From: Actinomycetota bacterium
Lineage (GTDB): Bacteria > Actinomycetota > Acidimicrobiia > Acidimicrobiales > GCA-2861595
Assembly: GCA_016781225.1 (NCBI GenBank)
Contig: JADDQT010000001.1
Coordinates: 10,537 to 49,656, forward strand
Reading direction: 5' to 3'
Length of the DNA: 39,120 bases
Below are positions 9,261 to 33,914 of the stretch, one piece after another. A program made the position numbers and the translations under genes. Position 1 is the first letter of the stretch; every line of letters starts with the position of its first letter. Below the pieces are notes generated by a model. That model was given only the letters and a program-made list of their open reading frames with translations. It was not told where the DNA came from and ran no database searches.

Positions 9261-9488
9261 TCACCGGCCCCGGGCGGTCACCGATCTTGTTGAGCGCCCT
9301 CTGGCCACCGCCGCGAAGCGCTGATAAGCCGACTGACGGGTAATGCCGAAGGCGGCACCCACGTCGGCCCAGGTAGCGCCAGCGTCACGGGCGAGTGCGA
9401 CGTACTCGCCCGCCTGATGCTTCAGCTCCTTGGCTCGCTCGTCGGCCCCTCGGGCACGACGCAGCAGCTGGCTTACGAGTGCGCTCAT
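9261..9488 (-). CDS. Small HTH DNA-binding protein (75 aa), possible regulator or excision factor
   Basis: Internal ATG 9488 is preceded by GGGGAGA. HTH segment WADVGAAFGITRQSAYQRF. It is divergent from the 9629 gene. Confidence 0.6.
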   Translation of the reverse strand: MSALVSQLLRRARGADERAKELKHQAGEYVALARDAGATWADVGAAFGITRQSAYQRFAAVARGRSTRSVTARGR

Positions 9489-9628
9489 GGGATCTCCCCG
9501 CGTCAAGGACCAGGAGAGAGCCGCAGCCGGCTCCGAGCCGAGCATCAGTGTGCCAGGAAACCCGTCGCGAATCGGGCGTCTGGAGGCACGTAGATCGTCT
9601 AGGAGCCCTCGACCCGTGGAGGTGGACC

Positions 9629-10624: not shown

Positions 10625-10627
10625 CAC

Positions 10628-11584
10628 GTGACGTTGCGGTGGACGGACCTCCACCCAGAGGCGGGTATGACGGCCGCACTGGATCATGCCGACGCGGAGA
10701 CATCCCGCGTCGTCATCGAAGCCGATGTCGCCCGCATTGCCGAACAAGGTCTGTCGCGCGAGCAGCGAAAGCGCGAGCGCGAGCCCCTCCGCGACATGCG
10801 GAAGCGGTGGTCAGAGCGCTTCGCGAACGGATCGGCCACGATGCTCGCGAACGAGTTGCGGGGTCATCGTGTCGTCTCGCGTCGGTTCAGGGTCGCGCCC
10901 CTTCCAGATGGAACAGGGCAGGAGTCGTTCTGGCCCCTGGGCTATCGGAGTGGCAAGCGGATCGACGTAGTGGTCGCCAGAGAGCTCGTGGGCCTCCAGC
11001 TCGGCGCGTCGCTCAAGGGATTGAACTTCCGAGACGACGAGGGCGGGAACTTCGACAAGAACCTGACCGGGCGCCTGTACGAGTTGGCCGATGAGATGAC
11101 GACGGTGCACCGCCATCTCCCTCGCGCCTTCATGGCAGGGATCTTCTTCCTGCCGATCGACGCGTGCTTCGATAAGGGACCCGGGCAGTCGTCATTCGCG
11201 CACACGGTCCTCGAACTCCGTCGGCGTTCGGATCGCGACCCAGCAGACGCGTCACAGTCCGCAAGGTGTGACTTCGCTGCGGTCGGGCTCTATGCGCCCG
11301 GAGGCGGCGTGTCGAGCGAACGAGGGATCGGAAGGGGAGTCGTCCGCTTCTTTCCCGTCGATCGACCACCTCCCCGCAGGGAGCTGCCTCCCGTCGAAAG
11401 AACACTCACCCTCGCCGAGCTGGCCGACCGCATGCTCGCCGGAGCGATCGGTGGGACTGCGGCGAGCGACGCATACGGCGATGCCGAAGACGAGCTCGCC
11501 GAGGGCGAGGAGCCGACAGCGCTCGAGGACGTCGTGCTCGCCGAAGAGGCTGGCGAGATCGACGAGATCGCGCTCGAGGAGTAG
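10628..11584 (+). CDS. Hypothetical protein, possible PD-(D/E)XK nuclease (candidate restriction endonuclease)
   Basis: GTG start 4 nt after the previous stop. Core-like pattern KRIDVVVARELVGLQLGASLKG (D...SxK). The acidic C-terminal tail is disordered. The function is a guess. Confidence 0.4.
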   Translation: MTLRWTDLHPEAGMTAALDHADAETSRVVIEADVARIAEQGLSREQRKREREPLRDMRKRWSERFANGSATMLANELRGHRVVSRRFRVAPLPDGTGQESFWPLGYRSGKRIDVVVARELVGLQLGASLKGLNFRDDEGGNFDKNLTGRLYELADEMTTVHRHLPRAFMAGIFFLPIDACFDKGPGQSSFAHTVLELRRRSDRDPADASQSARCDFAAVGLYAPGGGVSSERGIGRGVVRFFPVDRPPPRRELPPVERTLTLAELADRMLAGAIGGTAASDAYGDAEDELAEGEEPTALEDVVLAEEAGEIDEIALEE

Positions 11585-11607
11585 CTGCGGTTCGTCGCTC
11601 AGCCGCA

Positions 11608-12525
11608 TCAGCCGGCCATCCGGAACCGTTCGTAGCGCTCCTCGAGGAGTTCGCGGTTCGGGCGAGCTGCTCGTTGGCGGGGAAGCTCGATCCGCTCTAG
11701 GTGCAGCCGCTGAAGCGCATACGTCAGCGTGGGGCCGTCCTCCTCGACGAGAACGTCGGGGCGTACCTCGATCGCGTAGTCCGGCCGGACGGCCATCAGC
11801 ATGGTGTCGAAAGCGGCGTGGTGGATCTTGCACATTGCGATGCCGTTAGTCACGACTGGTTCTCCGCCGAGTGAGTCGTTCCGGATGTGGGCCGCGTCGA
11901 GGAGCTCGCGATGCCGTAGACGGCAGAAGGCACAGCGGTTCTCGTAGGCGGCCAGCACTTGAGCTCGGAACACTGGCTGCTGCAGACGTTCTTTGACAAT
12001 GCGGTCGGCATAGGCGCGGCGCAGCTCGATCACGACGGCGTCGTGGGTGTCTCCCCACGTGTGAAGCTGCTCTGGGTCCAGCGCAACGACGAACTGGTGC
12101 TGCTCTGGCTCTTCGGCGACGAGCCACACCGGGAACACCGGTAGATACAGGCCCGGAGCGAGCCCTTGAAACCAGATGAGAGGGAGCTGGCGTTCCATGG
12201 CCTTGCGAAGGGCGACGTTTTCCGGGTGGCTCGCGTTCCTCCCACGCCATTTGTACCGCTGGTAGCCGTCGACCCCGCGTTCATCGGCATAAGGCCGCTG
12301 GTCCGGGCTAGAGGCGAACACCGTCCTGAAGCTCAACGCCGCATCGAGCATGCGCGGCTTTCGGATGCCCCTCTGGATGTCCATGAGAGGGATTCGCTCG
12401 CCGTCGAGCACGAAGCCCGCCACGTCTTCGTGTCGCACCGGTCCGCCGGTGCGCAGTTGGACGGCCCGGAGGTGGGCGAGAGCCGAGGAGCGCAACCGCT
12501 CGTCGAACTCCTCGTCCATGGCCAC
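11608..12525 (-). CDS. HNH nuclease (HNH_2 / COG3440-like predicted restriction endonuclease) with an SRA-like N-terminal domain
   Basis: HNH segment CAFCRLRHRELLDAAHIRND...NGIAMCKIHHAAFD. The N-terminal YADERGVDGYQRYKWRGRNASHPENVALRKA resembles the YDG/SRA signature. Confidence 0.65.
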   Translation of the reverse strand: MAMDEEFDERLRSSALAHLRAVQLRTGGPVRHEDVAGFVLDGERIPLMDIQRGIRKPRMLDAALSFRTVFASSPDQRPYADERGVDGYQRYKWRGRNASHPENVALRKAMERQLPLIWFQGLAPGLYLPVFPVWLVAEEPEQHQFVVALDPEQLHTWGDTHDAVVIELRRAYADRIVKERLQQPVFRAQVLAAYENRCAFCRLRHRELLDAAHIRNDSLGGEPVVTNGIAMCKIHHAAFDTMLMAVRPDYAIEVRPDVLVEEDGPTLTYALQRLHLERIELPRQRAARPNRELLEERYERFRMAG

Positions 12526-12733
12526 GGAGGCGGACTGTAACCACGGCTTGGGCTGATCGCCGAGATCCGCGCCTATGAGGGGGGCGACGACCTATTGTCA
12601 GCTCAGCCTCGTTCCGGCCGCGGGTATCTCGCGGTCGGCGATCGACTGGAGTCGAGCTCTCGGGCAGCAGCGGCGCGGCCGCCCCGCGATGGAGGCCCTC
12701 GTGTGACGAGGCGAGATCGACGGGGGTAGCCCC

Positions 12734-14005
12734 ATGGCCCGATGTGGCGCTGTATCGCTTCAGAAGTCCCTCTTTGCATCCTTGGGACGGGATGGCCTCG
12801 ATGCTGAGTTTCATCGATGTAATTTGGGTCCCGTGGGTAACGTCGCCGGGTTCACGGTCGCCGCGCTGTTCGCCGGAATCGGTGGCATCGAGCGCGGCCT
12901 CGAGAAGGTCGGCGGACATACCGAACTCCTCTGCGAGAACTGGGATCCAGCAGTCGCCGTTCTCGGCGAGCGTTTCCCGGACGTGCCAATGGTGGGGGAC
13001 GTCAGGGATCTACGGTCGCTGCCGAAGGTCGACGTGGTCACGGCGGGCTTCCCGTGCACCGACCTCTCTCAGGCGGGGCGGACGAAAGGGATCCAGGGCA
13101 ACGCGTCCGGCCTCGTCGCCGAGGTGTTCCGTCTTCTGAAGCGCACCAAGGCCCCTGTACTGCTCCTCGAGAATGTGCGGAACATGCTCGTTCTCGACGG
13201 GGGCAAGGCCATGCGGTACCTCGTTGCGGAACTTGAGGCCCTCGGCTACCGCTGGGCCTATCGTCTCGTCGACTCTCGCTTTACGGGAGTCCCTCAGCGG
13301 CGCCAGCGCGTCATCTTCGTGGCAGCAAGGGAAATCGATCCACGGGCAGTGCTGTTCGCCGATGATGCGGGTGAGCCGGACGCCGAGCGTTACAGCGACG
13401 CGTGCTTCGGGTTCTACTGGACCGAGGGGCTGCGCGGCCTCGGATGGGCGAAGGACGCGGTGCCTACGCTCAAGGGCGGGTCCACGATCGGCATACCCTC
13501 GCCGCCGGCAATATGGGCGCCGAACAACCAGCTCGGTCTCCGTCTGGTCACTCCCGCGATCGAAGATGCCGAGGAACTACAGGGATTCGAACCTGGGTGG
13601 ACCGAGCCGGCCGAGCTGGTCACCAAGCGGCGTGGGACCCGCTGGAAGTTGATCGGTAACGCCGTCACCGTCGGCGTGTCGACGTGGTTTGGTCGGCGAT
13701 TGGCCGATCCGGGAGAGCCATTCCTCGAGGGAGCGGCGGTTCAGTCGGGCGACCGATGGCCCAACGCCGCGTTCGGGGCCTCCGGCAAGGCGTGGGCGGT
13801 TGACGTGTCGATGTGGCCCACACACCAGCCATACCGTCATCTCGCGGAAGTGATGGATCTCCTGCGCGCGACACCTGTGTCTGCGCGAGGCGCTGGGGGC
13901 TTCCTTTCGCGTGCGCAGCGTGGAAGCCTTCGGTTCATGGATGGCTTCCTAGAGGATGTCGCCGAGCACGTCCGCTTCATGAACGAGGAACTGTTTGGCG
14001 CCTGA
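12734..14005 (+). CDS. dcm: DNA (cytosine-5)-methyltransferase; the start is uncertain (ATG 12734 or GTG 12833)
   Basis: Motif I LFAGIGG, motif IV GFPCTDLSQAG, motif VI LLLENVRNM, motif VIII QRRQRV, motif X LIGNAVTV. Confidence 0.9.
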   Translation: MARCGAVSLQKSLFASLGRDGLDAEFHRCNLGPVGNVAGFTVAALFAGIGGIERGLEKVGGHTELLCENWDPAVAVLGERFPDVPMVGDVRDLRSLPKVDVVTAGFPCTDLSQAGRTKGIQGNASGLVAEVFRLLKRTKAPVLLLENVRNMLVLDGGKAMRYLVAELEALGYRWAYRLVDSRFTGVPQRRQRVIFVAAREIDPRAVLFADDAGEPDAERYSDACFGFYWTEGLRGLGWAKDAVPTLKGGSTIGIPSPPAIWAPNNQLGLRLVTPAIEDAEELQGFEPGWTEPAELVTKRRGTRWKLIGNAVTVGVSTWFGRRLADPGEPFLEGAAVQSGDRWPNAAFGASGKAWAVDVSMWPTHQPYRHLAEVMDLLRATPVSARGAGGFLSRAQRGSLRFMDGFLEDVAEHVRFMNEELFGA

Positions 14006-14450
14006 GCCTGTGCGTCCGGGGCGGCCAGCAGCGTCGTCGGAGGAGATCCGACTTCGGATGCAGCGTCAGGCCGGCCGGGACACGAAGCCCGAACTCGCCC
14101 TCCGCCGAGAACTGTGGCGTCGAGGATTGCGGTACCGAGTCGACCTTGCACCCATCAGTGGGCTTCCTCGTCGAGCCGACATGGTCTTCAGCCGCGCACG
14201 AGTCGCTGTCTACGTGGACGGGTGTTACTGGCACAGCTGCCCGGATCACGCCACGGTCCCGAAGGCCAACCGCGACTGGTGGGTCGCGAAGCTTGAGGCG
14301 AACGTGAAGCGTGATCGTGACACCGATGCTCGATTGCGATGGGCGGGTTGGGAGGTGGTGCGCGTGTGGGAGCACGAGACGATCGTCGACGCGGCAGATC
14401 GGATCGAGTCCGTCGCGCGCGAGCGACCTGGCAGCGCCGGGAGCGGATGA
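13995..14450 (+). CDS. vsr: Very-short-patch repair endonuclease Vsr
   Basis: Segments DTKPELALRRELWRRGLRYRV, VAVYVDGCYWHSCPDH and NRDWWVAKLEANVKRD. It overlaps the dcm 3' end by 11 nt (TTG 13995; alternative GTG 14010). Confidence 0.9.
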   Translation: MAPEPVRPGRPAASSEEIRLRMQRQAGRDTKPELALRRELWRRGLRYRVDLAPISGLPRRADMVFSRARVAVYVDGCYWHSCPDHATVPKANRDWWVAKLEANVKRDRDTDARLRWAGWEVVRVWEHETIVDAADRIESVARERPGSAGSG

Positions 14451-14524
14451 TGTTCAGCACCCTGACGGGACCCCGTTTGGTGGTCCACCCGCTATGAGAG
14501 TGGTCCATGGGTGACACCCGGCCT

Positions 14525-15421
14525 CTAGGACGCCCGTAGAGGCGCCGGAAGGTCCGGGGATGGGTTGGGAGTGCCGACGAATTGATCGTCGACCTCCCAT
14601 CTTGTTTGGTACTCGGCGGGGGTGAGCCCATCGAGGGCCGAGTGAGGCCGGTAGGTGTTGTACTCGATCCTCCAGGCCTCGATGAGGACCTGCGCCTCGG
14701 CGAGGGAGCCGAACTCCTCGGTGTTGAGCAGCTCGTCTCGCACCCGGCCGTTGAACGACTCGACGTAGGGGTTCTGCCACGGTGAGCCGGGCTCTATGTA
14801 GATGGTCCCGGTGCCGGCCAGGCGGCACCACTCCCGAAGGGCCCAGGCCACGAGCTCGGGTCCGTTGTCCATGCGCAGATGCGCCGGTGCGCCTCGCTCG
14901 GCCACCAGGGCCTCGATGGTGGCCACCACCTCATCGGCGTCGCAGGATCGCCCCACCCGCATGGCCAGGGCTTCACTGCTGTGCTCGTCGACGATGTTCA
15001 ACAGCTTGAGCCTCCTCTGATCGGCGGTCTCGTCGAACTGAAAGTCCAGGGCCCACACGTCATTGGGATGTTCAGCCCTCCGGCGCTCCGCGGTGCTGGC
15101 GTGGGTCCGGCGGCGCTTGTGGCAGTGCTGGGGTCGGCGCAGGCCCTCCTCCCTCCACAGGCGCTGCGTGCGCTTGCGGTTGATGACCCAGCCCTCTCGG
15201 CGAAGGAGGCGATGGGCCGCCTTCCAGCCCCAGCGAGGATGGCGGCGGGCGATGTCTCGCAGACGGCGACGCAGCTTGTCCTCCTCGGCCGGACGAGGCC
15301 GGCACGGCTTGCGCTGGGTGGAGCGCTGCTGGCCCACCACTCGATAGGCCCGGCGTTCGGAGACCCCGAAGCGCTCCTGTAGGACCACGACGGCCCTGCG
15401 GCGGCGCTTCGGGGTCACCAT
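14525..15421 (-). CDS. IS3-family transposase OrfB (DDE/rve integrase core)
   Basis: Segments WALDFQFDE, LRMDNGPELV and PGSPWQNPYVESFNGRVRDE. Its ATG overlaps the orfA stop (ATGGTGA). Confidence 0.9.
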   Translation of the reverse strand: MVTPKRRRRAVVVLQERFGVSERRAYRVVGQQRSTQRKPCRPRPAEEDKLRRRLRDIARRHPRWGWKAAHRLLRREGWVINRKRTQRLWREEGLRRPQHCHKRRRTHASTAERRRAEHPNDVWALDFQFDETADQRRLKLLNIVDEHSSEALAMRVGRSCDADEVVATIEALVAERGAPAHLRMDNGPELVAWALREWCRLAGTGTIYIEPGSPWQNPYVESFNGRVRDELLNTEEFGSLAEAQVLIEAWRIEYNTYRPHSALDGLTPAEYQTRWEVDDQFVGTPNPSPDLPAPLRAS

Positions 15422-15693
15422 TTTCCCTCGGCCAGCTCCTTGAGCGTGGCCTTGTCCAGCTCAGCGTCGGCCAGCAGGCGCTTCAGCCGACCGTTCTCCG
15501 ACTCGAGCTCCCGCAGGCGCTTGGCCTCGGAGGCCTTCATGCCCCCGTACTGGTTGCGCCAGCGGTTCCAGGTGGCTTCGGACACCTCGAGGTGGCGGAG
15601 CACCTCGGTGAGGTCCTTGCCGTCGTTGAGCAGCCGCTCACCCTCGCGGAGCTTGCGCACGACCTGCTCGGGGGTGTGGCGGTGTCGCTTCAT
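15415..15693 (-). CDS. IS3-family transposase OrfA (HTH plus leucine zipper)
   Basis: MKRHRHTPEQVVRKLREGERLL... The slippery heptamer G_GGA_AAA sits just before the stop. A -1 shift gives the fusion ...LAEGKMVTPKRRR. Confidence 0.85.
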   Translation of the reverse strand: MKRHRHTPEQVVRKLREGERLLNDGKDLTEVLRHLEVSEATWNRWRNQYGGMKASEAKRLRELESENGRLKRLLADAELDKATLKELAEGKW

Positions 15694-15976
15694 CGTGGTC
15701 AGTCCCTTCATGCCCAGATCCTGGGCGTCGGACTCCCACAGTTGGTGGACCACTTTCCGGGGGCCCCGTCAACCCCACCGGGCGTCCCGAGTGGCGGGCA
15801 AGGTTCGAGCAGGAGGACGCCGCGTCCGCGAGAAGTCGTCTTCTACTTTCAAGGCTTAGAAGGACGCCACACTGTGGCCGCCCGATCGTCCAGGACGCCT
15901 GCACGCTCGAGGAGACGGTGGAAACCCTTGGTGCGAGCCCTCGGCTCCGCGCGACGTTGTCTGGGCGCACCCTGAG

Positions 15977-15993
15977 CGGGCCCTCACGGCCCG
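15977..15993 (-). terminator. GC hairpin (CGGGCC-CTCAC-GGCCCG) directly after the GHKL gene stop
   Basis: 6-bp perfect stem abutting the stop codon at 15994-15996. There is no U-tract. Confidence 0.3.
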
Positions 15994-17796
15994 TCAGTCC
16001 GCGTCCGCTGTGAACAGGATGTCGGAGAGATCGACTGCTGCCGAATCCTGGATCGTCCCGAGGAGTTCCCACAGGTACTCGGAGATGTCGGTGGTGCCGT
16101 CCCAGTTCGCCCGCACGTCGTATGCCTGGATCACTTCGACGAAACGGCTGAAGACGTAGTCACGCCATCTCGCGCTCTTGGCGCCCTCGTCCTGGAGCAT
16201 CCGCTCGGCGAGTGGGCGCTGCGCGTTGATCCACCACAGGTTGGCCTCGACATCATGGGTCCGCTGGTACACCACCGGCTGACGAGGATGGAGAGTGAAC
16301 ACCTCGCCAGAGTCGGGGTCAGGGTCGTATCCGGAGATCCGAATCTCTGGGAAGCGCGGCACGCTCTTCTTCTTGTCACCGGCACCACCACCGCCAGTCT
16401 GCGTGCCACTGCCGCCCGAACCCGCGCCGCCGCCGCCACCTCCACCGCCGGATCCGCCCTTCTTGTCATGGAACTCGCCCGGGCCGCCGGCGCCGCCACC
16501 ACCCGTGCCGCCTTCGCCTGCGCCTTCGCCCTTACCCACGCTCACCATCACCTCGCGGGCGCGAAGGAACTTGTTCTTCCAGCGGTTCAAGCGGTTTGAC
16601 AGCGCTTGGTTCTCGTTTTCTTCCCGAGCCCGTCGCTTTGCGTTCTCCTCCTTGGCCAGCTCGTCGGAGAGATCATCTATGCGTAACGCAACCCACTCGA
16701 GGATCGCGTCGGTCATAGGGTTCGCTACGAGATGGACACGGTCGTTGGTCTTCAGCCCGTGATCCTCAAGCACCGGAGCGTCGAGCGCTCCGTAGATGAA
16801 GTCGGCGCCTGCTCGGTTCCGGATTGGCAGTTCGCCGACCCGATAGCTGGCGATGATCAGGCCGTTACGTCCCTTGACGTCGATCGCATGAGTCGGATCG
16901 CGGCGTGTAAATGGGTCGAAGGCAACACGAAGCGTTAGCTCACCAGCCTTTGGCTTGTCGGTGAGGGTGAAGACGTCATCCCCGCTCTTCAGCTCGGCTG
17001 GCAGGTCATACGATCGGCCCTCCTCGTAACCCGGTCGATCGGGGATCGCGGGGAGACGGAGAGGGTCAATGATCCTGTCACCGTCAGAGAACGCGACATG
17101 TGCTCGTTCGAGGACTTGCTTTGCCTGCGGATCCGCGAGGAGCTTCAACTCGAAGGCCTCACTCCGGCTCCATTGTGCGGGATGACGCAACCCTCGTCCT
17201 CGTACGATTGTGAAATGACACATCTGCGGGTCGTCGGAGGCCACGGCGGGTCGAACCGCATCAGGCAGGTCGCCGCAAGTCGGGGCGAGCCCGGCGATCG
17301 CTCGCGCTCGGTCCGGTGAGACCGTGGCGCCTCGGTAGCGTTCGTCGAAGCCGTATTGCTTGCTCTCGTCGAATCCGAAGACCGTGATGCGCCCGTCGCG
17401 GTAGGTGATGAACTCTGATCGCTTGAAGTTCTCCCGCATGTGGAACTTGCCGCCGTTTCCGTGCCCGCCAAAGCCGGCGAAGTCGGCACGGCCGCGGCTT
17501 GCGGCGACGTCTGAACCCCACCGCTTGAGGTGTTCGTCTATCTCCTCGTAGGTCGCTCCGATGAAGTCGATGCACTCCATCACGCCATCCGTGCCGGCAC
17601 GCGACGTCGGGGTCTCGACGTGCATGACGATGAACGGGACGCCTGGCTCATCCATGCGAACGGCCTGGTCGTACGCGTTCTTGAGCCACTCTGCGGCGCC
17701 TGCAGCGTACTTCCCTTGGAACTGTGCGCCGAGAAGGTCGAGCACGCGCTCCTTGTCCATCTCGGCTTCCTGATGCGCAATTGCAAAGTCAGTCAT
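15994..17796 (-). CDS. GHKL (Bergerat-fold) ATPase with a coiled coil, a ~57-aa Gly-rich linker and an unknown C-terminal domain
   Basis: N-box EWLKNAYDQA, G1-like ECIDFIGAT, G2 box AGFGGHGNGGKF. The ATG at 17796 overlaps the upstream stop (ATGACTGA). Confidence 0.7.
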   Translation of the reverse strand: MTDFAIAHQEAEMDKERVLDLLGAQFQGKYAAGAAEWLKNAYDQAVRMDEPGVPFIVMHVETPTSRAGTDGVMECIDFIGATYEEIDEHLKRWGSDVAASRGRADFAGFGGHGNGGKFHMRENFKRSEFITYRDGRITVFGFDESKQYGFDERYRGATVSPDRARAIAGLAPTCGDLPDAVRPAVASDDPQMCHFTIVRGRGLRHPAQWSRSEAFELKLLADPQAKQVLERAHVAFSDGDRIIDPLRLPAIPDRPGYEEGRSYDLPAELKSGDDVFTLTDKPKAGELTLRVAFDPFTRRDPTHAIDVKGRNGLIIASYRVGELPIRNRAGADFIYGALDAPVLEDHGLKTNDRVHLVANPMTDAILEWVALRIDDLSDELAKEENAKRRAREENENQALSNRLNRWKNKFLRAREVMVSVGKGEGAGEGGTGGGGAGGPGEFHDKKGGSGGGGGGGGAGSGGSGTQTGGGGAGDKKKSVPRFPEIRISGYDPDPDSGEVFTLHPRQPVVYQRTHDVEANLWWINAQRPLAERMLQDEGAKSARWRDYVFSRFVEVIQAYDVRANWDGTTDISEYLWELLGTIQDSAAVDLSDILFTADAD

Positions 17797-18418
17797 CGTC
17801 GGGGCCCCTTGAGGTCTTCCGGGCAATGATGTCGGCGAACCGGTCTCGGAGGAACTCGTCCACGGCGACGAGTTCCTTCGCTCCGGGTGTGTCCGTCGTC
17901 ACGGCTTCGTCGAGCGCACGACGTGTCTGAGCAAGCCGGCTCTCGAAGTCGCGGGCGGGCGCACGCACGCTCGTGCGATAGAACGCAAAGAAGTCTGTGT
18001 CCAGGATGTCGTCCGTCTGGCCGGCGAGGAAGAGCTGGGTAGCCGTCGCCCGCTCGAGGTGCTGCAACTCCTGGCTACCACTCCTACTCATCCGGCCTGT
18101 TGATGCTGGGCCCTGGGTATCCGCGTCCGAGAACAACGTCGCCGCGAGATCCCAGCCAGCGTTGGTCAGCTTGAACTTCTTCTGGCGTGTCGGACCTGTC
18201 GCGACCAGGCCGCCGGACTTCAGTTCCTTGTAAAGGGAAACGTGAATGTCGCTCGCGTCGGGAAAGCGATCGGAGTAACCGCGAAGCCCGAAGTCATCCG
18301 GGTACAACTCCCACGCCTTGACGACGATGTCCTCATACGTCATAAGGCGAGGCCCGTCCGGCGAGAGGGCATAAAGCGCCTCAAGGATCTTGCGCGGGCG
18401 TCCGCCGAGCTTTGCCAT
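17789..18418 (-). CDS. Hypothetical winged-helix protein (209 aa)
   Basis: The N-terminal segment KILEALYALSPDGPRLMTYEDIVVKAW...KFKLTNAGWDLA looks like a wHTH. The start is 2 nt after the upstream stop. Confidence 0.6.
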   Translation of the reverse strand: MAKLGGRPRKILEALYALSPDGPRLMTYEDIVVKAWELYPDDFGLRGYSDRFPDASDIHVSLYKELKSGGLVATGPTRQKKFKLTNAGWDLAATLFSDADTQGPASTGRMSRSGSQELQHLERATATQLFLAGQTDDILDTDFFAFYRTSVRAPARDFESRLAQTRRALDEAVTTDTPGAKELVAVDEFLRDRFADIIARKTSRGPDDD

Positions 18419-18420
18419 CG

Positions 18421-19932
18421 TCAGCCGCCCCGAGCTCGCCGACGAGCCGCGCCGAACAATCGGAGCACATCTCGGTCCCCACGGGCGGCGAGTAGCTCCT
18501 CGACCTCACCAAGCTGCGCGTGCGGCGAAAGGCCGATCCCAGTCGCGCATGCCGAGAGCCATGCGTGGTCGTCGCTCGTCTGACCCAGCCGAAGTAGGAG
18601 CTCTTGTTCGGCGTCGGCCGCGCTCAGGTCAACCTGACGGACGAGTCGGAAGCCGAGGCGGCCAGTGTCATAGGCGACGACGAACAAGTAGTCGCCCTCG
18701 GCGGCGCCAAGGGACTCAGCGACATGGCGAAGCGATCCGATTCCAGGCGACTGAGAAGGCCAATACATCGGGATGTCACCGAACTCGGATGAGAACTTGA
18801 GCCTGCCTCCGGGGAGGAGCCTCAACAGCGCGGCGAACGCCTCCGGGACGATGTGTCCGCTCCCGCGGAGGGTGTCGTGCGTAACGAGATGCCTCCAGGC
18901 CCAAACCCCTTCGATGACGACGCAGTCGCCCGCCTCCTCTAGTGCTGTATCCGGCACGTAAGGCTCATCCTCACGCCGCAAGCGAACCCAGACGCCGTCC
19001 CGGACGAACCGCGGATGCGTCACGCTCATGATCTCCACCGAAGCTGCGACGATCCCGAACTTCTCGTCGAGGATCCGCTTCAGGCGCTCGATCGGCATCC
19101 CGTGTGGCAGCCCCCCAAGTTCGTCGGCCATCTCGGCGGCGATGCTCTTGTACCGTTCACCGCCCCACTCCGACAGCCCCCACCTGCGGGGACCCCGCCG
19201 CTGAAACCGATCTTCGCTACCGAGGTAGTTCTTGAGCGTCGTAAGCGAGCCTTCGCCGATGTGCTCGTGGATCTCCTCGGCTGTCATGAGCCGGCGCTTC
19301 AGAGCGAGCACGACCGCGGCCTTGTCTCCGAGCGTGCCCGACCACGGCACGACCTTCTCATCGACGATACGGATGTCGCGGCGCGCTCGAAGCGCTTGAA
19401 GCTGGTGATCGTCGTGGATACCCAAGCTGCGCATCGAACGACGCACTTCCACAAGCGGAACGGGCCCCGAGGCGGTCTCGGCGAGGGCAGCACGGAGAGC
19501 GGTGTCGAACTTGGCTGACATCATTGTTTCGGCCGCCACCTGGTATGGGCCGGCCAGGAAGAGCAGCAGATGCACTTCGGTCGGGAGCACGGTCGCGTTG
19601 AGATCAACGCCGATGGCGTCGGCTAGGTCCGTCCTCGAGAAAACAAGCCCCAGGTCGAAGCGGATCCGCGTGATTACGGCGTCCACCTCCGGGATGGATT
19701 TCAGCTGTAGTAACTCCTTGACAGCTGCTGCCTCGATCTGGCGAACGCGTTCGCGGCTGAGGTTGAACCGGTCGCCGAGCTCTTGAAGTGTCGGGATCGA
19801 AGCTCCGATTGCGAAGACTCGTTCCGCGAGGATCGTATGGGCTCGACCGTCGAGCCGGCGGAGAGCGTGCTGGATCACCGGGAGCCACTCTGATCCTTGC
19901 GCGGCGTGCCTCGACGGTGTCTCGTGGACCAT
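18421..19932 (-). CDS. Multi-HTH protein: sigma-70 region-4-type HTH plus HARE-HTH-like winged helices plus an unknown C-terminal domain
   Basis: Segments TLQELGDRFNLSRERVRQIEAAAVKEL and MTAEEIHEHIG...RFQRRGPRRWGLSEW. Alternative starts are at 19944 and 19971. Confidence 0.65.
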   Translation of the reverse strand: MVHETPSRHAAQGSEWLPVIQHALRRLDGRAHTILAERVFAIGASIPTLQELGDRFNLSRERVRQIEAAAVKELLQLKSIPEVDAVITRIRFDLGLVFSRTDLADAIGVDLNATVLPTEVHLLLFLAGPYQVAAETMMSAKFDTALRAALAETASGPVPLVEVRRSMRSLGIHDDHQLQALRARRDIRIVDEKVVPWSGTLGDKAAVVLALKRRLMTAEEIHEHIGEGSLTTLKNYLGSEDRFQRRGPRRWGLSEWGGERYKSIAAEMADELGGLPHGMPIERLKRILDEKFGIVAASVEIMSVTHPRFVRDGVWVRLRREDEPYVPDTALEEAGDCVVIEGVWAWRHLVTHDTLRGSGHIVPEAFAALLRLLPGGRLKFSSEFGDIPMYWPSQSPGIGSLRHVAESLGAAEGDYLFVVAYDTGRLGFRLVRQVDLSAADAEQELLLRLGQTSDDHAWLSACATGIGLSPHAQLGEVEELLAARGDRDVLRLFGAARRRARGG

Positions 19933-19936
19933 CGAG

Positions 19937-20503
19937 CTACTCATTACTACCGAGGCTCTCGACGCGCTCACGTCCAGCCGGTGTGATCTCCCAGATGCCC
20001 CGCGGGGAGCCCTTCTTGATTAGACCGGCCTGGACGAGCTTCAAGCGAACGAATTGCGTCCTGTTCTTCCACCGGACGAGGCCCGAGTCGAGCACCTCGC
20101 GGTCGGCAGGCGTGAGACGGTGGTCGAGCGTGGCCCCCACGTCTTCGATCAATTCGCTTGCTGGCGCGGAGCCGCCCCGGGCAACGAGCGCCCTTAGCAG
20201 CGGCTCTTCGTACTCACGCTCCGGCAGCAGCGAACCACTTTCCGCTCGCGGTCGCGACGAACCCCTCTTGCTCTTCGTCCGGCCCCTCAGCCTCGCCGCC
20301 GACCGCGGCGTCGGTGACCTCTCCTTGGCTTTCAGTTCGGCATCGAGCTCCCGAGCGGTCGAGGCCAAGCGGCCAACGGCTCCGCTGCCATCGATCCCGA
20401 GGAGTCGACGCAGGACCGAGTTCACGTCATCGACGAGCGGTTCAGCAAGGCGTTGCAGCGCCTCGAAGACCTCGTCGTCCACGGGCGGCAGCTGGCGTGT
20501 CAT
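19937..20503 (-). CDS. Mrr_N-type winged-helix protein with a basic disordered linker (188 aa)
   Basis: C-terminal segment YEEPLLRALVARGGSAPASELIE...LVRWKNRTQFVRLKLVQAGLIKKGSPRGIWEITPAGRE. AAGGAAGG lies upstream of the ATG at 20503. Confidence 0.65.
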   Translation of the reverse strand: MTRQLPPVDDEVFEALQRLAEPLVDDVNSVLRRLLGIDGSGAVGRLASTARELDAELKAKERSPTPRSAARLRGRTKSKRGSSRPRAESGSLLPEREYEEPLLRALVARGGSAPASELIEDVGATLDHRLTPADREVLDSGLVRWKNRTQFVRLKLVQAGLIKKGSPRGIWEITPAGRERVESLGSNE

Positions 20504-20529
20504 CAGCAGCGAGCCTTCCTTACAGGAGT

Positions 20530-20583
20530 CATTGCAATGAGTATTGCATCCACCGCCAGCGATTGCAATCTACATTGCAATAA
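20530..20583. promoter_or_regulatory. Array of ATTGCAAT palindromes in the divergent promoter region (putative operators)
   Basis: CATTGCAATG at 20530-20539, TATTGCAT at 20543-20550, GATTGCAATC at 20561-20570 and CATTGCAATA at 20573-20582. This is an AT-rich motif in GC-rich DNA, between the operon start (20503) and phd (20675). Confidence 0.55.
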
Positions 20584-20674
20584 GCTGGCCGGCGGGACCG
20601 CGAATCCAAGGCTCAGGGGAAAGCTCATGCATCGCCCCGGCCCCAGGCGGTATCAAGGTGATACCATAACCGGC

Positions 20675-20878
20675 ATGGCTATGACTCTTCGACTGACCGA
20701 GGACGAGCAGGCCGCGCTCCGGCAACGAGCAGAGCGGGAGGGCATCTCGATGCAGGACGCGGCTCGGCGAGCCGTCCGCGACTACGTCGCCAGGGGCGAG
20801 CATCGGGATCGGGTGGCGGAGGCCGCCGAGCGAGTGAAGGCTGCCCATGCTGAAGCCCTCCGACGTCTCGGGGAGTGA
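20675..20878 (+). CDS. Ribbon-helix-helix antitoxin (Phd/CopG-like)
   Basis: MAMTLRLTEDEQAALRQRAEREGISMQDAARRAVRDYV... Its stop overlaps the doc GTG (GTGA). Confidence 0.8.
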   Translation: MAMTLRLTEDEQAALRQRAEREGISMQDAARRAVRDYVARGEHRDRVAEAAERVKAAHAEALRRLGE

Positions 20879-21261
20879 ACGAGCCGGTCGAGTACCTGGA
20901 TCTGGACGACCTCATCGAGCTCGCCTCCGGGCTCCTGGGAGACCCGCCTCCCATCCGCGACGTCGGACTGCTCGGCTCCGCCGCCGCCCGGCCTCAGACG
21001 AGTGCCTTCGGTGAGGACGCCTACCCGGACATCTGGACCAAGGCGGCTGCGCTGCTCCAATCCATCCTCAAGAACCACGCCCTTGTTGACGGCAACAAGC
21101 GGCTCGGCTGGCTCGCCACGGCTACTTTCCTGGAGATCAACGGGATCCCGGTGACGCACATCGACAACGATGCCGTCCACGACTTCGTGATCGACGTGAC
21201 GGTCGGCCACCAGGATGTCGGCGAGATTGCCGGCGCCCTTCGCCGGCTCGCGGAGCCCTGA
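20875..21261 (+). CDS. doc: Fic/Doc-family toxin (death-on-curing)
   Basis: Doc-type motif NHALVDGNKRLGWLATATFLEING. It is translationally coupled to the antitoxin. Confidence 0.85.
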   Translation: MNEPVEYLDLDDLIELASGLLGDPPPIRDVGLLGSAAARPQTSAFGEDAYPDIWTKAAALLQSILKNHALVDGNKRLGWLATATFLEINGIPVTHIDNDAVHDFVIDVTVGHQDVGEIAGALRRLAEP

Positions 21262-21275
21262 GACGACCTGCAGAT

Positions 21276-21440
21276 TCACAACAACTCGATTCGTGTCCGC
21301 AAGGGGACAATCGCCCCTCCGACACTGGCGATACGGACACCTAGATCCGCAGTCGCCTCGACCACCTTCTCGTGCGGGTCGTACACGGCGCGGAGCCCGA
21401 TCTCCTCGTAGAACGGGTGCGCAGCTTCGGATGGGTCACC
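21276..21440 (-). other. Out-of-frame integrase C-terminal segment, copy 2, with a different tail after the att core
   Basis: Same -1 frame as copy 1, but it ends ...RIASVGGAIVPLRTRIELL* because it reads into the doc-side arm instead of the tRNA. Confidence 0.55.
21314..21322 (+). other. Inter-copy junction core (attP-like: doc-side arm joined to int-side arm)
   Basis: GGGGACAATCG-CCCCTCCGA-CACTGGCGATACGG. The left arm equals the attR left arm and the right arm equals the attL right arm. Confidence 0.7.
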
Positions 21441-22963
21441 CCGACCAGGCCGACCAGGCCACCGATCTCCTCGACCGCCTCGCGGATCTGCGCCTTGGTC
21501 ATCCGGACCGCGTCGGCGTCCGCTGAGGCGGCTCGGAGCATCGCTTCTGCCTCCCGGCGCTCGCGCGTGACCTCGGCGATCCACTGGCCGACGACCTTCG
21601 GGTCGGTGCCGCCGTCGAGAGCGACGCGGTAGCGCTCGAGCTTCCGGTCGCACTCCCGAATAGCTGCCTGTGCCTCGGCCCGAGCGGCGATTGACGCGTC
21701 AGTGTCAATGGCTTCGACCAGGGCGTCGCAGGTGGCATCGATGTTCTCCGGGTCGAAGATGGTCCCGAGCCAATCGTCGATGTGCGGCAGCAGATCGCGT
21801 TCGCGGAGATAGACCGCCTTCGGGTGGCGGAACTCACTCGCCGTCGCGTACTGCGCCGCATATAGGCAGCGGTAGTACGGCTCGTCGTGGTGCCAACTGC
21901 CTTGAAGCCGCTTCCCGCACAGCCGGCAGCGAAGCCGGCCACGGAGCAGGTACGGCCGATCCGTACGCTTCGGGCGACGCTCCTGCGGTCCACGCTTCGC
22001 CGCTTGCATCTTCACCTGGACGGCATCGAAGACCTCGCGTTCGATCAGCGGCTCGTGCGCCGGCTCGGCCGACCAGATCCACTCGCTCTCACCGTTCCAC
22101 CGCATCACCGTCCGGTGCCCCGCGCCGACGTCCTCGACGTCGACGAGTACCTCCTCACGCCGCTGCTTCGCCCAGACCTGGTAGCCGGTGTAGCGGGGAT
22201 TCATGAGGATCGCCCGGACGGCGGACTTCCCCCATGCCCAGCCGTGACGGTGTGGGTTTCGCTCGCGGTCGTAGCCGCTCGGCGACGGAACACCTTCGGC
22301 GGTCAGCTGCTCGGCGATGGCGAGGTAGCCCACGCCGGCCAGGTACTCGTCGAAGATCCGTCGCACGACCGGCGCGGTGACCGGGTCGGGCTTGAGCTGA
22401 TGCAGTCGCTTTCCGTCACTCGCCTTCTCTGGGTTCGGGTGCGGTCCGATGTCGCCCAGCCGGTAGCCGTACGGCGGCCGACCTCCGAGAAACCGCCCCT
22501 GCATCTCGGCCTGCGCGCTCATCGCCGTGCGAACGCGCGTCTTGATGCGTGACCGCTCGCCCTTGGACATGCCGCCGAAGAGCATCATCACCAGGTCGTG
22601 CGCCTCGGAGCCGGGATCGATGGCACCGCCAACCTCGGGAACCCAGACGGCGACGCCGTAGTGCGTGAAGACCGGGAACGTGAGGCCGAACTGGTTGCCG
22701 TAGAAGGCCCGCTGCGGCTCGCCGATCACGACAGCCTCGAACCCGCGGGCACGCTGCGCGAGCGCGGCGAGCAGCGCCGACGCCTCCGGCCGGCGCTTCC
22801 AGGGCAGCGACCGGCTCTGTGCGACGTCGAAGAACTCTGCGACCACTGTCCCGCCGGCGGGCTCGATGAGCTGCCGGCTGCGGTGGAGCTGCCACTGCTT
22901 CGACGACTCGGGGTCCTGCTGGTCCTCGGTGCTCACCCGGCCGTAGAAGGCGAAGCGGATCAT
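21341..22963 (-). CDS. Large serine recombinase, copy 2
   Basis: Translation identical to 7363..8985 (offset +13,978), with the same frameshift. Confidence 0.85.
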   Translation of the reverse strand: MIRFAFYGRVSTEDQQDPESSKQWQLHRSRQLIEPAGGTVVAEFFDVAQSRSLPWKRRPEASALLAALAQRARGFEAVVIGEPQRAFYGNQFGLTFPVFTHYGVAVWVPEVGGAIDPGSEAHDLVMMLFGGMSKGERSRIKTRVRTAMSAQAEMQGRFLGGRPPYGYRLGDIGPHPNPEKASDGKRLHQLKPDPVTAPVVRRIFDEYLAGVGYLAIAEQLTAEGVPSPSGYDRERNPHRHGWAWGKSAVRAILMNPRYTGYQVWAKQRREEVLVDVEDVGAGHRTVMRWNGESEWIWSAEPAHEPLIEREVFDAVQVKMQAAKRGPQERRPKRTDRPYLLRGRLRCRLCGKRLQGSWHHDEPYYRCLYAAQYATASEFRHPKAVYLRERDLLPHIDDWLGTIFDPENIDATCDALVEAIDTDASIAARAEAQAAIRECDRKLERYRVALDGGTDPKVVGQWIAEVTRERREAEAMLRAASADADAVRMTKAQIREAVEEIGGLVGLVGVTHPKLRTRSTRRSGSAPCTTRTRRWSRRLRI

Positions 22964-23238
22964 CGGTTGGACCCTAGGCCGCGTCCTCGGGCGGTAGCGG
23001 TGACCGCTGGTCGCACTGCCGGCGCTTGGCTTCTCGCACCATGGCGAGCAATACGGCGGCAGCCCGAGGGCTGATGCTCGGCGGTCGGGCAGGGGAGGGC
23101 TTGACGCGTTTGCAGACGGGCTGGGATCGGGACGGTTGACGTTGGTGTCTTGTCATGCCCTGACGGTGAAGTTCGCCCCTCAACGGAAACCTCAACGGAG
23201 CTCTCAACGATCGAGCTTCCGTCGCTTCCACTCCTTCA

Positions 23239-23466
23239 TCACCGGCCCCGGGCGGTCACCGATCTTGTTGAGCGCCCTCTGGCCACCGCCGCGAAGCGCT
23301 GATAAGCCGACTGACGGGTAATGCCGAAGGCGGCACCCACGTCGGCCCAGGTAGCGCCAGCGTCACGGGCGAGTGCGACGTACTCGCCCGCCTGATGCTT
23401 CAGCTCCTTGGCTCGCTCGTCGGCCCCTCGGGCACGACGCAGCAGCTGGCTTACGAGTGCGCTCAT
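23239..23466 (-). CDS. Small HTH protein, copy 2
   Basis: Identical to 9261..9488. Confidence 0.6.
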   Translation of the reverse strand: MSALVSQLLRRARGADERAKELKHQAGEYVALARDAGATWADVGAAFGITRQSAYQRFAAVARGRSTRSVTARGR

Positions 23467-23606
23467 GGGATCTCCCCGCGTCAAGGACCAGGAGAGAGCC
23501 GCAGCCGGCTCCGAGCCGAGCATCAGTGTGCCAGGAAACCCGTCGCGAATCGGGCGTCTGGAGGCACGTAGATCGTCTAGGAGCCCTCGACCCGTGGAGG
23601 TGGACC

Positions 23607-24602
23607 ATGAGCGATCACGAGATTGGGCGGAGCAAGGCAGGGGACGACCGCAGGCTCAGCGACCAGGAGAAAAATCAGCGCCTCCGATCACTCCTCACGC
23701 CCCTCGTCAACGACCTCGTCCGCGCCACTCCGGCCCATCCGCACGACCCAACCCGCCGCGTTCATCAGCCCGGCCACGATCCTTCGCCGACGCCCTCAAC
23801 GCTCCCTTCATGCAACCACACAGACTTGCCGCTTCCGCAGAGCGGAAGCAGCGGAAGCAGTCCCACCGGCGAAGGAGGGCGGCAACAGCCGACCGCCGCC
23901 GACCTGATGGAGATCCTTGACCAGACGCTCGTCATGCCGGTTGCGCCGCCCCTCCGTGATCTCGAGCCCCAGGTCGTGGTGCGGTGGGTAGAGGCTGCGT
24001 CGGAGGCACTCCTGCATCGACGCGAACGCCGCCGCCTGGTGCGCGAAGTCCTACGCGTGCTCGATGAGGAGTGGGCGACGGCCGAGGCAGCCAAGCGGCT
24101 GCGCGAGCAGATCGCCACGTGCGAAGCGGCGCGCCGCCGGCGCGAGGCGGGCACCTACTGGCAGCACCGCGAGGCAGGCCGCCGATCCCAGCGTCCGGTG
24201 CGCGTCGAGGTGGACAGCGAGGCCTGGCGCCGAGCGAAGGAGATCGCCAGGCAGCTCGCCGTCGGTCTGGGCGAGTACGTCGGCCAGGTCGTCCGCGATC
24301 ACCTGGCCACACCGCTCGACGAGGGCGCGATCGCCCGGCTCAGCCAGACGAGGCGCCGCCAGACCACCCGTGAGCGGATCTACTTACGGATCGACGTCTC
24401 GAGCAGTGACTGGGATGACCTGGTCGCCCGCGCTCGAAACCGCCGCACAACTCTGCTCCGCTACCTCGGAGCGCTCGTCGAGGCCACCGTCTGGGAGGAG
24501 TGTGAGCTGCGCACAGACGGGCGACCCGTTGCCTCTGGCCCGTACGATCGAACGGATGGTTACCACCGGCTGCCCGGCCGCGACGCCGATGAGCAGGCGT
24601 AG
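23607..24602 (+). CDS. Double RHH-like hypothetical protein, copy 2
   Basis: Identical to 9629..10624. Confidence 0.6.
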   Translation: MSDHEIGRSKAGDDRRLSDQEKNQRLRSLLTPLVNDLVRATPAHPHDPTRRVHQPGHDPSPTPSTLPSCNHTDLPLPQSGSSGSSPTGEGGRQQPTAADLMEILDQTLVMPVAPPLRDLEPQVVVRWVEAASEALLHRRERRRLVREVLRVLDEEWATAEAAKRLREQIATCEAARRRREAGTYWQHREAGRRSQRPVRVEVDSEAWRRAKEIARQLAVGLGEYVGQVVRDHLATPLDEGAIARLSQTRRRQTTRERIYLRIDVSSSDWDDLVARARNRRTTLLRYLGALVEATVWEECELRTDGRPVASGPYDRTDGYHRLPGRDADEQA

Positions 24603-24605
24603 CAC

Positions 24606-25562
24606 GTGACGTTGCGGTGGACGGACCTCCACCCAGAGGCGGGTATGACGGCCGCACTGGATCATGCCGACGCGGAGACATCCCGCGTCGTCATCGAAGC
24701 CGATGTCGCCCGCATTGCCGAACAAGGTCTGTCGCGCGAGCAGCGAAAGCGCGAGCGCGAGCCCCTCCGCGACATGCGGAAGCGGTGGTCAGAGCGCTTC
24801 GCGAACGGATCGGCCACGATGCTCGCGAACGAGTTGCGGGGTCATCGTGTCGTCTCGCGTCGGTTCAGGGTCGCGCCCCTTCCAGATGGAACAGGGCAGG
24901 AGTCGTTCTGGCCCCTGGGCTATCGGAGTGGCAAGCGGATCGACGTAGTGGTCGCCAGAGAGCTCGTGGGCCTCCAGCTCGGCGCGTCGCTCAAGGGATT
25001 GAACTTCCGAGACGACGAGGGCGGGAACTTCGACAAGAACCTGACCGGGCGCCTGTACGAGTTGGCCGATGAGATGACGACGGTGCACCGCCATCTCCCT
25101 CGCGCCTTCATGGCAGGGATCTTCTTCCTGCCGATCGACGCGTGCTTCGATAAGGGACCCGGGCAGTCGTCATTCGCGCACACGGTCCTCGAACTCCGTC
25201 GGCGTTCGGATCGCGACCCAGCAGACGCGTCACAGTCCGCAAGGTGTGACTTCGCTGCGGTCGGGCTCTATGCGCCCGGAGGCGGCGTGTCGAGCGAACG
25301 AGGGATCGGAAGGGGAGTCGTCCGCTTCTTTCCCGTCGATCGACCACCTCCCCGCAGGGAGCTGCCTCCCGTCGAAAGAACACTCACCCTCGCCGAGCTG
25401 GCCGACCGCATGCTCGCCGGAGCGATCGGTGGGACTGCGGCGAGCGACGCATACGGCGATGCCGAAGACGAGCTCGCCGAGGGCGAGGAGCCGACAGCGC
25501 TCGAGGACGTCGTGCTCGCCGAAGAGGCTGGCGAGATCGACGAGATCGCGCTCGAGGAGTAG
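24606..25562 (+). CDS. Possible PD-(D/E)XK nuclease, copy 2
   Basis: Identical to 10628..11584. Confidence 0.4.
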   Translation: MTLRWTDLHPEAGMTAALDHADAETSRVVIEADVARIAEQGLSREQRKREREPLRDMRKRWSERFANGSATMLANELRGHRVVSRRFRVAPLPDGTGQESFWPLGYRSGKRIDVVVARELVGLQLGASLKGLNFRDDEGGNFDKNLTGRLYELADEMTTVHRHLPRAFMAGIFFLPIDACFDKGPGQSSFAHTVLELRRRSDRDPADASQSARCDFAAVGLYAPGGGVSSERGIGRGVVRFFPVDRPPPRRELPPVERTLTLAELADRMLAGAIGGTAASDAYGDAEDELAEGEEPTALEDVVLAEEAGEIDEIALEE

Positions 25563-25585
25563 CTGCGGTTCGTCGCTCAGCCGCA

Positions 25586-26503: not shown

Positions 26504-26711
26504 GGAGGCGGACTGTAACCACGGCTTGGGCTGATCGCCGAGATCCGCGCCTATGAGGGGGGCGACGACCTATTGTCAGCTCAGCCTCGTTCCGGCCGCG
26601 GGTATCTCGCGGTCGGCGATCGACTGGAGTCGAGCTCTCGGGCAGCAGCGGCGCGGCCGCCCCGCGATGGAGGCCCTCGTGTGACGAGGCGAGATCGACG
26701 GGGGTAGCCCC

Positions 26712-28428: not shown

Positions 28429-28502
28429 TGTTCAGCACCCTGACGGGACCCCGTTTGGTGGTCCACCCGCTATGAGAGTGGTCCATGGGTGACACCCGGC
28501 CT

Positions 28503-29954: not shown

Positions 29955-29971
29955 CGGGCCCTCACGGCCCG
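29955..29971 (-). terminator. GC hairpin after the GHKL gene, copy 2
   Basis: Identical to 15977..15993. Confidence 0.3.
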
Positions 29972-32396: not shown

Positions 32397-32398
32397 CG

Positions 32399-33910: not shown

Positions 33911-33914
33911 CGAG

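Follow-up and report, generated by a model that had tools for sequence, protein, structure and literature searches.

This study concerns a four-gene operon, g1 to g4, together with the cytosine methyltransferase (Dcm) and Vsr endonuclease genes that lie beside it, in a stretch of 39,120 nucleotides (the window) from the genome of an Actinomycetota bacterium (assembly GCA_016781225.1, contig JADDQT010000001.1, positions 10,537 to 49,656; Table 1). A first-pass annotation had singled out these genes as a tightly packed minus-strand operon encoding a GHKL ATPase and several winged helix-turn-helix (wHTH) proteins, with a second copy further along the window. The open reading frames (ORFs) and the junction sequences agree with this description: g1 and g2 meet at TAG-ctcg-ATG, g2 and g3 at TGA-cg-ATG, and g3 overlaps g4 in ATGACTGA. 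For g2 the start is the ATG at 19932, as in the public gene call; for g4 it is the ATG at 17796, a choice backed by the alignment of homologues, which disfavours an upstream TTG. The second copy is identical to the first (0 mismatches across 4,627 nt) because the whole 13,978-bp island that carries the operon is tandemly duplicated; being a product of that duplication, it therefore provides no independent evidence for the operon.

The Bergerat motifs first recognised by eye in g4 prove to be invariant across 40 homologues: E36-x3-N40-x2-D43, D77-x2-G80 – a DxxG variant of the GHKL DxGxG motif – and GGHGNGGK at residues 110–117. An AlphaFold2 (AF2) model of the protein (mean predicted local distance difference test, pLDDT, 82) retrieves SMCHD1, MORC2/3/4, TRAP1/Hsp90 and GyrB with Foldseek, at E-values of 5e-10 to 1e-7 over 400–470 columns. 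By its invariant motifs and by these matches, g4 belongs to the GHKL (Bergerat-fold) ATPases and has a transducer (S5-like) domain. Beyond the transducer the model places a 54-residue helix (aa 360–413), a disordered Gly-rich linker of some 60 residues (aa 420–478) and a conserved, mostly helical C-terminal domain (aa 480–597), a modelled layout that overall resembles MutL. At the level of sequence g4 has no Pfam match even at E up to 1, no NCBIfam or PADLOC match and no match to MutL, and a search of PDB chains yields only low-complexity matches to the Gly linker. Since HATPase_c_3 does not match it, g4 falls outside the MORC family sensu stricto; the MORC-like character claimed for it, which the Foldseek results support, is one of fold only. 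A two-component kinase, an assignment named at the outset as one that would tell against the proposal, was also considered and rejected: there is no HisKA, HATPase_c or Response_reg match to Pfam in any of g1–g4, and the folds match GHL clamps rather than kinases.

The partners of g4 are predicted DNA-binding proteins. The AF2 model of g3 (pLDDT 87.5) comprises an N-terminal winged helix (aa 1–96) and an all-helical C-terminal domain (aa 112–203), in keeping with the wHTH and helical tail originally described. Its best fold matches in the PDB reach only E about 0.02 (VanR/PadR, MukE) and include no catalytic fold; the g3 profile gives weak wHTH signals only (HTH_45, MarR) against PDB sequences and Pfam, and no PADLOC model is matched. 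At the other end of the operon, g1 consists of a basic linker followed by an Mrr_N winged helix (aa 97–181), an assignment that Pfam secures at 6.5e-14; its sole PADLOC match is to the Mrr-like wHTH of mREase_IV. By eye, residues 1–40 (20390-20503; QLPPVDDEVFEALQRLAEPLVDDVNSVLRRLLG) are ribbon-helix-helix (RHH)-like. Read from the sequence in this way, g1 is a candidate two-domain protein, RHH plus Mrr_N, that may bind the ATTGCAAT boxes described below.

The architecture of g2 is more elaborate. The sigma-70 region 4 previously noted (aa ~16–85) is recovered by Pfam (Sigma70_r4, 3.6e-8) and by profile comparison with structures of SigA region 4 (3.6e-10); Pfam, NCBIfam and structure profiles detect no sigma region 2 in the window protein, which therefore cannot act as a sigma factor. 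Two HARE-HTH-like modules follow at about aa 195–320, and the C-terminal ~170 aa are unplaced. The HARE-HTH modules first claimed remain candidates: both are visible in the alignment of the window protein, and HARE-HTH matches 21 of 52 family members (E up to 0.01), beside Sigma70_r4 in all 52, RNA_pol_A_CTD in 28 and Bac_DnaA_C in 16; but PF05066 has no match in the window protein itself, and in the aligned region its orthologues score 18–22 bits (E 3e-4 to 4e-3) against a gathering threshold of 25.9. The usual targets of modules such as those in the g2 family are promoters, origins or modified DNA. A 2012 account of HARE-HTH reportedly includes bacterial chimeras that unite traits of sigma with those of the alpha subunit; the g2 family would be meant. 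A B3/EcoRII-N-like fold, suspected by eye for the C-terminal ~170 aa, found no support from hhalign against a RAV1 B3 sequence, a weak test. The g2 and g3 families show no relationship by hhalign (probability 0.5%), and a metagenome scan with g2 gave a single short locus. In some bacteria of the candidate phyla radiation (CPR) the g2-family protein carries a C-terminal HNH-type zinc-finger nuclease motif (L016 2985-3860, L067 2236-3483, L079 10083-11114; L-numbers here and below are labels of relative loci); the protein of L016 matches HNH_3 at 2.8e-5. This is the only nuclease fused to a component of the core.

A critical issue is which genes make up the unit. A pattern scan in which each species was represented by one genome returned 192 genomes with a relative of g4; the best 80 were examined, genes being counted by iterated profile searches of all ORFs in the 80 loci, 46 of which have full flanks. 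The loci span Verrucomicrobiota, Acidobacteriota, Planctomycetota, Myxococcota, Ignavibacteriota, Nitrospirota, Actinomycetota, Gammaproteobacteria, Clostridia and many CPR bacteria. Directly upstream of g4 lies g3 in 75 of the 80. A g2-family protein is found in 62, either upstream (g2-g3-g4) or downstream (g3-g4-g2), and g1 in five, upstream of g3 or g2. The pair g3-g4 is the invariant core, g2 is common, and g1 is a clade-specific accessory, present in all close relatives of the window though in so few of the wider set: the self-standing four-gene system initially proposed dissolves at this scale. In its closest clade (L083, L089, L090, L091/92, L049; g4 identity 67–85%) the full order g1-g2-g3-g4 is nonetheless kept, and the expectation that it would recur outside this island holds, in different contexts rich in defence genes. 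Members of the family are few: searched exhaustively by profile, 1.84 billion representatives yielded only 479 clusters with E up to 1e-3, or 184 with E up to 1e-30, and IMG/VR contributed only six distant g4 matches. A distant subfamily has a g4 of about 750–800 aa (IMG/VR contigs L094-L097; P0243-P0357), and in four viral contigs the order is reversed, g4 preceding g3.

The same census changes the standing of the methylase and its companion. A Dcm gene lies within 2.5 kb in 52 of the 80 loci (32 of the 46 with full flanks) and a Vsr gene nearby in at least 38 (24 of the 46); the order g4-Dcm-Vsr is frequent, with stop and start codons overlapping by 4 nt. Pairwise-identity matrices for g4 are correlated with those for g3 (rho 0.62), Dcm (0.56) and g2 (0.55), each with a Mantel permutation p of 0.001, although such correlations could partly reflect host phylogeny. 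In the closest clade, orthologues of the window Dcm and Vsr accompany g1–g4 through unrelated contexts. In the window itself the Vsr start overlaps the Dcm stop codon, and the pair is kept apart from g4 solely by an IS3-family element, which has inserted itself into the short interval separating Vsr from the 3′ end of g4; in L090, which lacks the insertion sequence (IS), Vsr ends 126 bp from g4. By virtue of the linkage, of the co-travel in the close clade and of the arrangement in L090, the Dcm-Vsr block is part of the module and not mere context. This departs from the first-pass annotation, in which a restriction–modification (R-M)/Vsr block was a neighbour of the operon; the two are often translationally coupled. 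Clustering of all neighbouring ORFs revealed no conserved helicase, Z1, AIPR or RE-fold nuclease family beside the module, with the exception of Vsr. In some Myxococcota and Planctomycetota, Dcm-Vsr fusions of about 565 aa stand directly downstream of g4 (L012 9959-11674, L014 9819-11507, L023 9854-11560).

The palindrome-rich region said to lie upstream of the operon resolves into three exact ATTGCAAT palindromes and one ATGCAAT variant, which together form a putative operator/promoter; TTGCAA is otherwise almost absent from the GC-rich sequence of the window. The boxes, of the form (A)TTGCAAT(G), are spaced about 12 nt and about 31 nt apart. Two or three TTGCAAT boxes lie in the 100 bp preceding g1 in L083 (7249-7299), L089 (6229-6247), L090 (5175-5212), L092 (6240-6290) and L049 (~5268-5285), and the short g1-bearing contig L087 has them too, near the contig end. 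They are kept upstream of g1 whatever the neighbours, and therefore belong to the g1–g4 operon and not to the divergent Phd/Doc pair. From the sequences alone, g1 is probably the autoregulator of the operon, acting through these boxes, and such a role would explain its restriction to one clade. TTGCAA also resembles the −35 consensus, a curious feature beside the sigma region 4 of g2.

The surroundings of the module vary. The flanks of close relatives hold CBASS genes (SMODS, SAVED, ThiF, JAB), McrBC, EcoEI R, Wadjet JetCD, GmrSD, DndB, toxin–antitoxin genes and transposases, and 14 of the 80 loci include a serine recombinase. In 12 loci, from three phyla, the gene ahead of g2 encodes a PIN protein. 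We considered it as a candidate effector and downgraded it: in ten of the 12 a short ORF ends at the PIN start (76–93 aa in nine, 207 aa in one), as fits an ordinary VapBC pair. A toxin–antitoxin pair next to the module is a recurrent arrangement, Phd/Doc in the window and VapBC-like in these 12 distant loci. One locus, L086 (5223-12359), combines DndB(DGQHR)-g3-g4-Vsr with, on the opposite strand, Dcm and a 623-aa sigma-70-family protein that has regions 2 and 4.

The mobile-island setting first suggested for the operon holds. A tRNA-Leu(GAG) gene is followed by two head-to-tail copies of the 13,978-bp element, and the core CGCCCCTCCGA is the sole sequence common to the three island junctions. 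Each copy contains a large serine recombinase at its left end, two unannotated proteins, HNH_2, Dcm, Vsr, the IS3-family element, g1–g4 and the RHH/Doc pair. The copies differ by eight mismatches, all in the last ~170 bp (21153-21323 versus 35131-35301) and four of them inside doc. The duplication is already present in the public assembly and could reflect either a genuine tandem integration or a misassembly of this metagenome-assembled genome. The IS3-family element encodes transposase domains and ends in 35-nt imperfect terminal inverted repeats. Orthologues of the HNH_2 gene, a neighbour of the operon in actinobacterial loci, adjoin g4 in L049 and L088/L089 and are absent from L090, L083 and L091; HNH_2 is an optional component, a candidate nuclease partner or a candidate type II restriction enzyme paired with Dcm, its match to the type II HNH model reaching only 2.3e-6. 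The two unannotated ORFs are co-directional and have no Pfam, NCBIfam or PADLOC match. In L088/L089 a homologue of the 318-aa protein (5e-43) accompanies the HNH_2 gene in the interval from Vsr to g4, and this protein may partner the HNH nuclease.

Table 1. Features of the g1–g4 module and of the island that carries it (window positions).
Feature	Position	Strand	Remarks
tRNA-Leu(GAG)	7263-7347		precedes the island copies
Island copy 1	roughly 7336-21313		13,978 bp
Island copy 2	roughly 21314-35291		13,978 bp
Island junctions	near 7329, 21307, 35290		share CGCCCCTCCGA
Unannotated ORF	9395-10624		409 aa listed; 331 aa in public call
Unannotated ORF	10628-11584		318 aa listed; 305 aa in public call
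HNH_2 endonuclease	11608-12525	minus	PF13391 at 5.4e-8; PADLOC HNH models 4e-17 and 2e-6
Dcm-type cytosine-5 DNA methyltransferase	12734-14005	plus	PF00145 at 2.9e-42; TIGR00675 above cut-off; PADLOC MTase_II 1.6e-127
Vsr endonuclease	13995-14450	plus	PF03852 at 4.5e-17; TIGR00632 119.8 vs cut-off 97.85
IS3-family element	14467-15766	minus	orfA 15415-15753; orfB 14525-15421
g4	15994-17796	minus	600 aa
g3	17789-18418	minus	209 aa
g2	18421-19932	minus	503 aa
g1	19937-20503	minus	188 aa
Putative operator/promoter	20531-20581		upstream of g1
RHH antitoxin	20675-20878		divergent from g1; probable start 20675, not long TTG ORF
Doc/Fic toxin	20875-21261		divergent from g1
IS3-family element, second island copy	28445-29744		
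Second g1–g4 copy	29972-34481	minus	offset 13,978 nt

As the first-pass annotation had it, g1–g4 match no named defence system in PADLOC, NCBIfam or Pfam. BREX and its kin combine a methyltransferase, an ATPase and DNA-binding components with no obvious core nuclease; unlike them, the module matches no BREX family, and its methylase is of the C5 Dcm type with Vsr. MZA, an anti-phage system, reportedly includes a MutL-like GHKL ATPase. Likeness to that system lies in a sigma-70-related protein, region 4 of g2 aligning to MzaA (NCBIfam NF041931) at 5.7e-10, but the match reaches 38.7 bits against an 800-bit cut-off and covers region 4 only; g2 lacks region 2, there are no Z1 or AIPR genes, and g3 and g4 match no Mza model in PADLOC. 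The g4-linked sigma-like protein of L086 comes closer (MzaA at 2.7e-62, below cut-off), and a tblastn search of annotated plasmids with the MzaA-like protein found only ordinary sigma factors.

The nearest precedents are to be found elsewhere, and in their light "undescribed", the word first applied to the operon, was an overstatement. Iyer, Abhiman and Aravind predicted in 2008 that paraMORC/MORC operons, in which GHKL+S5 ATPases stand beside Dcm, Vsr, helicases and RE nucleases, are R-M systems (PMC2292703). The module shares with them the GHKL and transducer (S5) domains, a family-specific C-terminal extension, Dcm and Vsr, sometimes an HNH protein, and a sporadic, laterally mobile distribution. 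It differs in having no conserved superfamily II helicase, Z1, AIPR or RE-fold nuclease, in its obligate wHTH partner g3 and usual sigma4/HARE-HTH/alpha C-terminal domain (alpha-CTD) protein, and in a g4 that is matched by neither HATPase_c_3 nor any other Pfam GHKL model. The comparison with paraMORC1-5 is one of descriptions only, and the g4 profile search stays within its closed family of 479 clusters. The module is, in short, a variant of the paraMORC-type methylase-linked predicted systems with a wHTH partner (PMC2292703). The RR-like/HEF_HK elements of Bellieny-Rabelo et al. 2021 (PMC8011034) likewise set a small partner and a GHKL protein beside a C5 methylase, Vsr and often HNH_2; theirs, however, are a receiver-like partner and an HATPase_c_3 + HEF_HK protein, and neither Pfam family matches g3 or g4. 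With E. coli MutL, in its dealings with MutH and Vsr, g4 has in common a GHKL-transducer module at the N terminus, joined by a long flexible linker to a C-terminal domain; MutL works with the Vsr nuclease and a methylation mark (PMC2715241), and the module pairs g4 with Vsr and Dcm. Unlike MutL, g4 offers no sequence match and has no MutS-like partner, and it resides on mobile islands with variable sensor proteins.

What might such a module do? Our preferred reading, to which we give a probability of about 50%, is that it constitutes a mobile, methylation-linked DNA-surveillance system of the paraMORC kind, R-M-like or defensive, of roughly six genes in the window; the island context makes a role in defence likely. 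Mrr_N is the domain with which a modification-dependent enzyme binds DNA, and the default role of Vsr is repair of the T:G mismatches caused by Dcm methylation. Under this scheme Dcm would mark host DNA with 5-methylcytosine, and DNA, together with the state of its cytosine modification, would be read by g3, g2 and g1 through their winged-helix, HARE-HTH and Mrr_N modules; HARE-HTH is considered likely to read such modifications (PMC11037411). When DNA is taken for foreign, these proteins, with g3 as loader, would load onto it g4, which by analogy with other GHL clamps would dimerise upon binding ATP and trap or loop the DNA. It might then activate an attached nuclease – the HNH_2 of the island, the HNH fused to g2 elsewhere, or Vsr – much as MutL does with MutH and Vsr, the N-terminal domain of E. 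coli MutL binding Vsr in a nucleotide-dependent manner (PMC2715241). Alternatively, where there is no dedicated nuclease, g4 could block the DNA non-nucleolytically. Throughout, g1 would tune expression of the operon from its ATTGCAAT boxes. Prior prediction of R-M components among GHKL+S5 ATPases linked to Dcm and Vsr (PMC2292703) is consistent with such a scheme.

Several observations weigh against it. No nuclease or other effector fold is recognisable in g1–g4 (Pfam, NCBIfam, PADLOC and, for g3, PDB folds). The earlier statement to that effect holds for the four genes; it does not hold for the module, which has Vsr, an HNH_2 on the island and, in some lineages, an HNH fused to g2. By its TIGR00632 score the Vsr is an ordinary one, so that Dcm alone may explain its presence. 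About 30% of the fully flanked loci are without a nearby Dcm and 14 of the 46 without Dcm or Vsr, and loci of the Ignavibacteria type have housekeeping flanks and no nearby methylase. Any gene carried along with an R-M cassette would likewise be expected to sit in a defence island. A tblastn search with g4 found no match in PLSDB plasmids or GenBank phages, in a family that is in any case rare; host phylogeny may account for part of the correlation between distance matrices; and the entire family is known from sequence alone.

The main rival, though an unlikely one, is that the module is instead a self-contained booster of very-short-patch repair, with g4 a portable MutL and g3 a DNA-recognition adaptor that together stimulate Vsr at T:G mismatches arising from deaminated 5-methylcytosine; the linked Dcm would then be essentially an orphan, and the cassette could spread into hosts whose MutL is absent or incompatible. 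The minimal recurrent unit g3-g4-Dcm-Vsr, with its overlapping genes and occasional Dcm-Vsr fusions, fits this well, as do a canonical Vsr (TIGR00632 above cut-off), the MutL-like architecture of g4 (ATPase module, flexible linker, C-terminal domain) and the precedent of Vsr binding by MutL. Many carriers are Actinobacteria or CPR bacteria, and Actinobacteria are not known to have MutS or MutL. Yet the core also occurs in phyla that possess MutSL (Verrucomicrobia, Acidobacteria, Myxococcales), it stands without Dcm or Vsr in those same 14 of 46 loci, and repair leaves the accessory sensors (sigma4/alpha-CTD/DnaA_C/HARE-HTH, Mrr_N, DndB) and the HNH fusions unexplained. Decidedly doubtful, in our estimation, is a role in epigenetic or transcriptional control of the island, in which g2 and g1 would be transcription factors and g4 an ATP-driven remodeller or a partner of the sigma-like domain, directed at the methylase, the neighbouring toxin–antitoxin pair or the genes for island excision. 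Every protein of the operon other than the ATPase is an HTH protein, the palindromic boxes are conserved, toxin–antitoxin pairs recur beside the module, and small GHKL proteins are known anti-sigma factors. But g4 resembles transducer-bearing GHL clamps, not small anti-sigma kinases, and g2 lacks sigma region 2; moreover, the composition of the module stays constant while its neighbours change completely, and a 600-aa ATPase with a 500–1000-aa multi-HTH protein is heavy machinery for the regulation of one methylase.

Nor is it probable, at about the same low level as island control, that the module is a nuclease-free immune system. In a MORC-style version of this idea, sigma region 4, alpha-CTD and DnaA domain IV in g2 may steer the g3-g4 clamp to unmethylated promoters or origins on incoming DNA, which g4 may compact and silence while the 5-methylcytosine laid down by Dcm marks self; in a decoy version the g2 modules may be integrated decoys that detect phage proteins hijacking sigma, alpha-CTD or DnaA. 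The synteny census, finally, has already largely refuted the simplest account, that a type II R-M cassette (HNH_2, Dcm and Vsr) and an unrelated ATPase operon are merely co-located, and we regard it as highly improbable. In the window the two blocks do lie on opposite strands with an IS between them, and HNH_2, Dcm and Vsr would make a plausible stand-alone type II system; against this, Dcm is linked in 52 of 80 loci across many phyla, often in a single operon with 4-nt overlaps, the distance matrices are correlated, and most loci have no HNH_2 gene.

That MORC/MutL-like ATPases linked to cytosine methylases form a major restriction-like class was predicted 18 years ago (PMC2292703), and the module is unsurprising to a specialist in comparative genomics, yet delimited enough for the coupling of methyl mark and clamp to be tested. 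What is new is a compact, delimited version of the theme – a wHTH adaptor, a GHKL clamp, a multi-HTH sigma4/HARE-HTH protein, Dcm and Vsr – together with structural models, a conserved operator and some 200 genomic examples from more than a dozen phyla, CPR bacteria included; its g3 and g4 go unrecognised by the models of Pfam, NCBIfam and PADLOC 2.0. If the module is a portable helper of Vsr repair, it would represent a new type of repair cassette. Should it serve defence, it would show how the reading of a methyl mark can be tied to an ATP-driven DNA clamp in a system that has no classical restriction nuclease. The module has a bearing, too, on how MORC silencing in eukaryotes originated in bacteria. 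Were the silencing version true, it would be a bacterial counterpart of the methylation-linked MORC silencing of eukaryotes.

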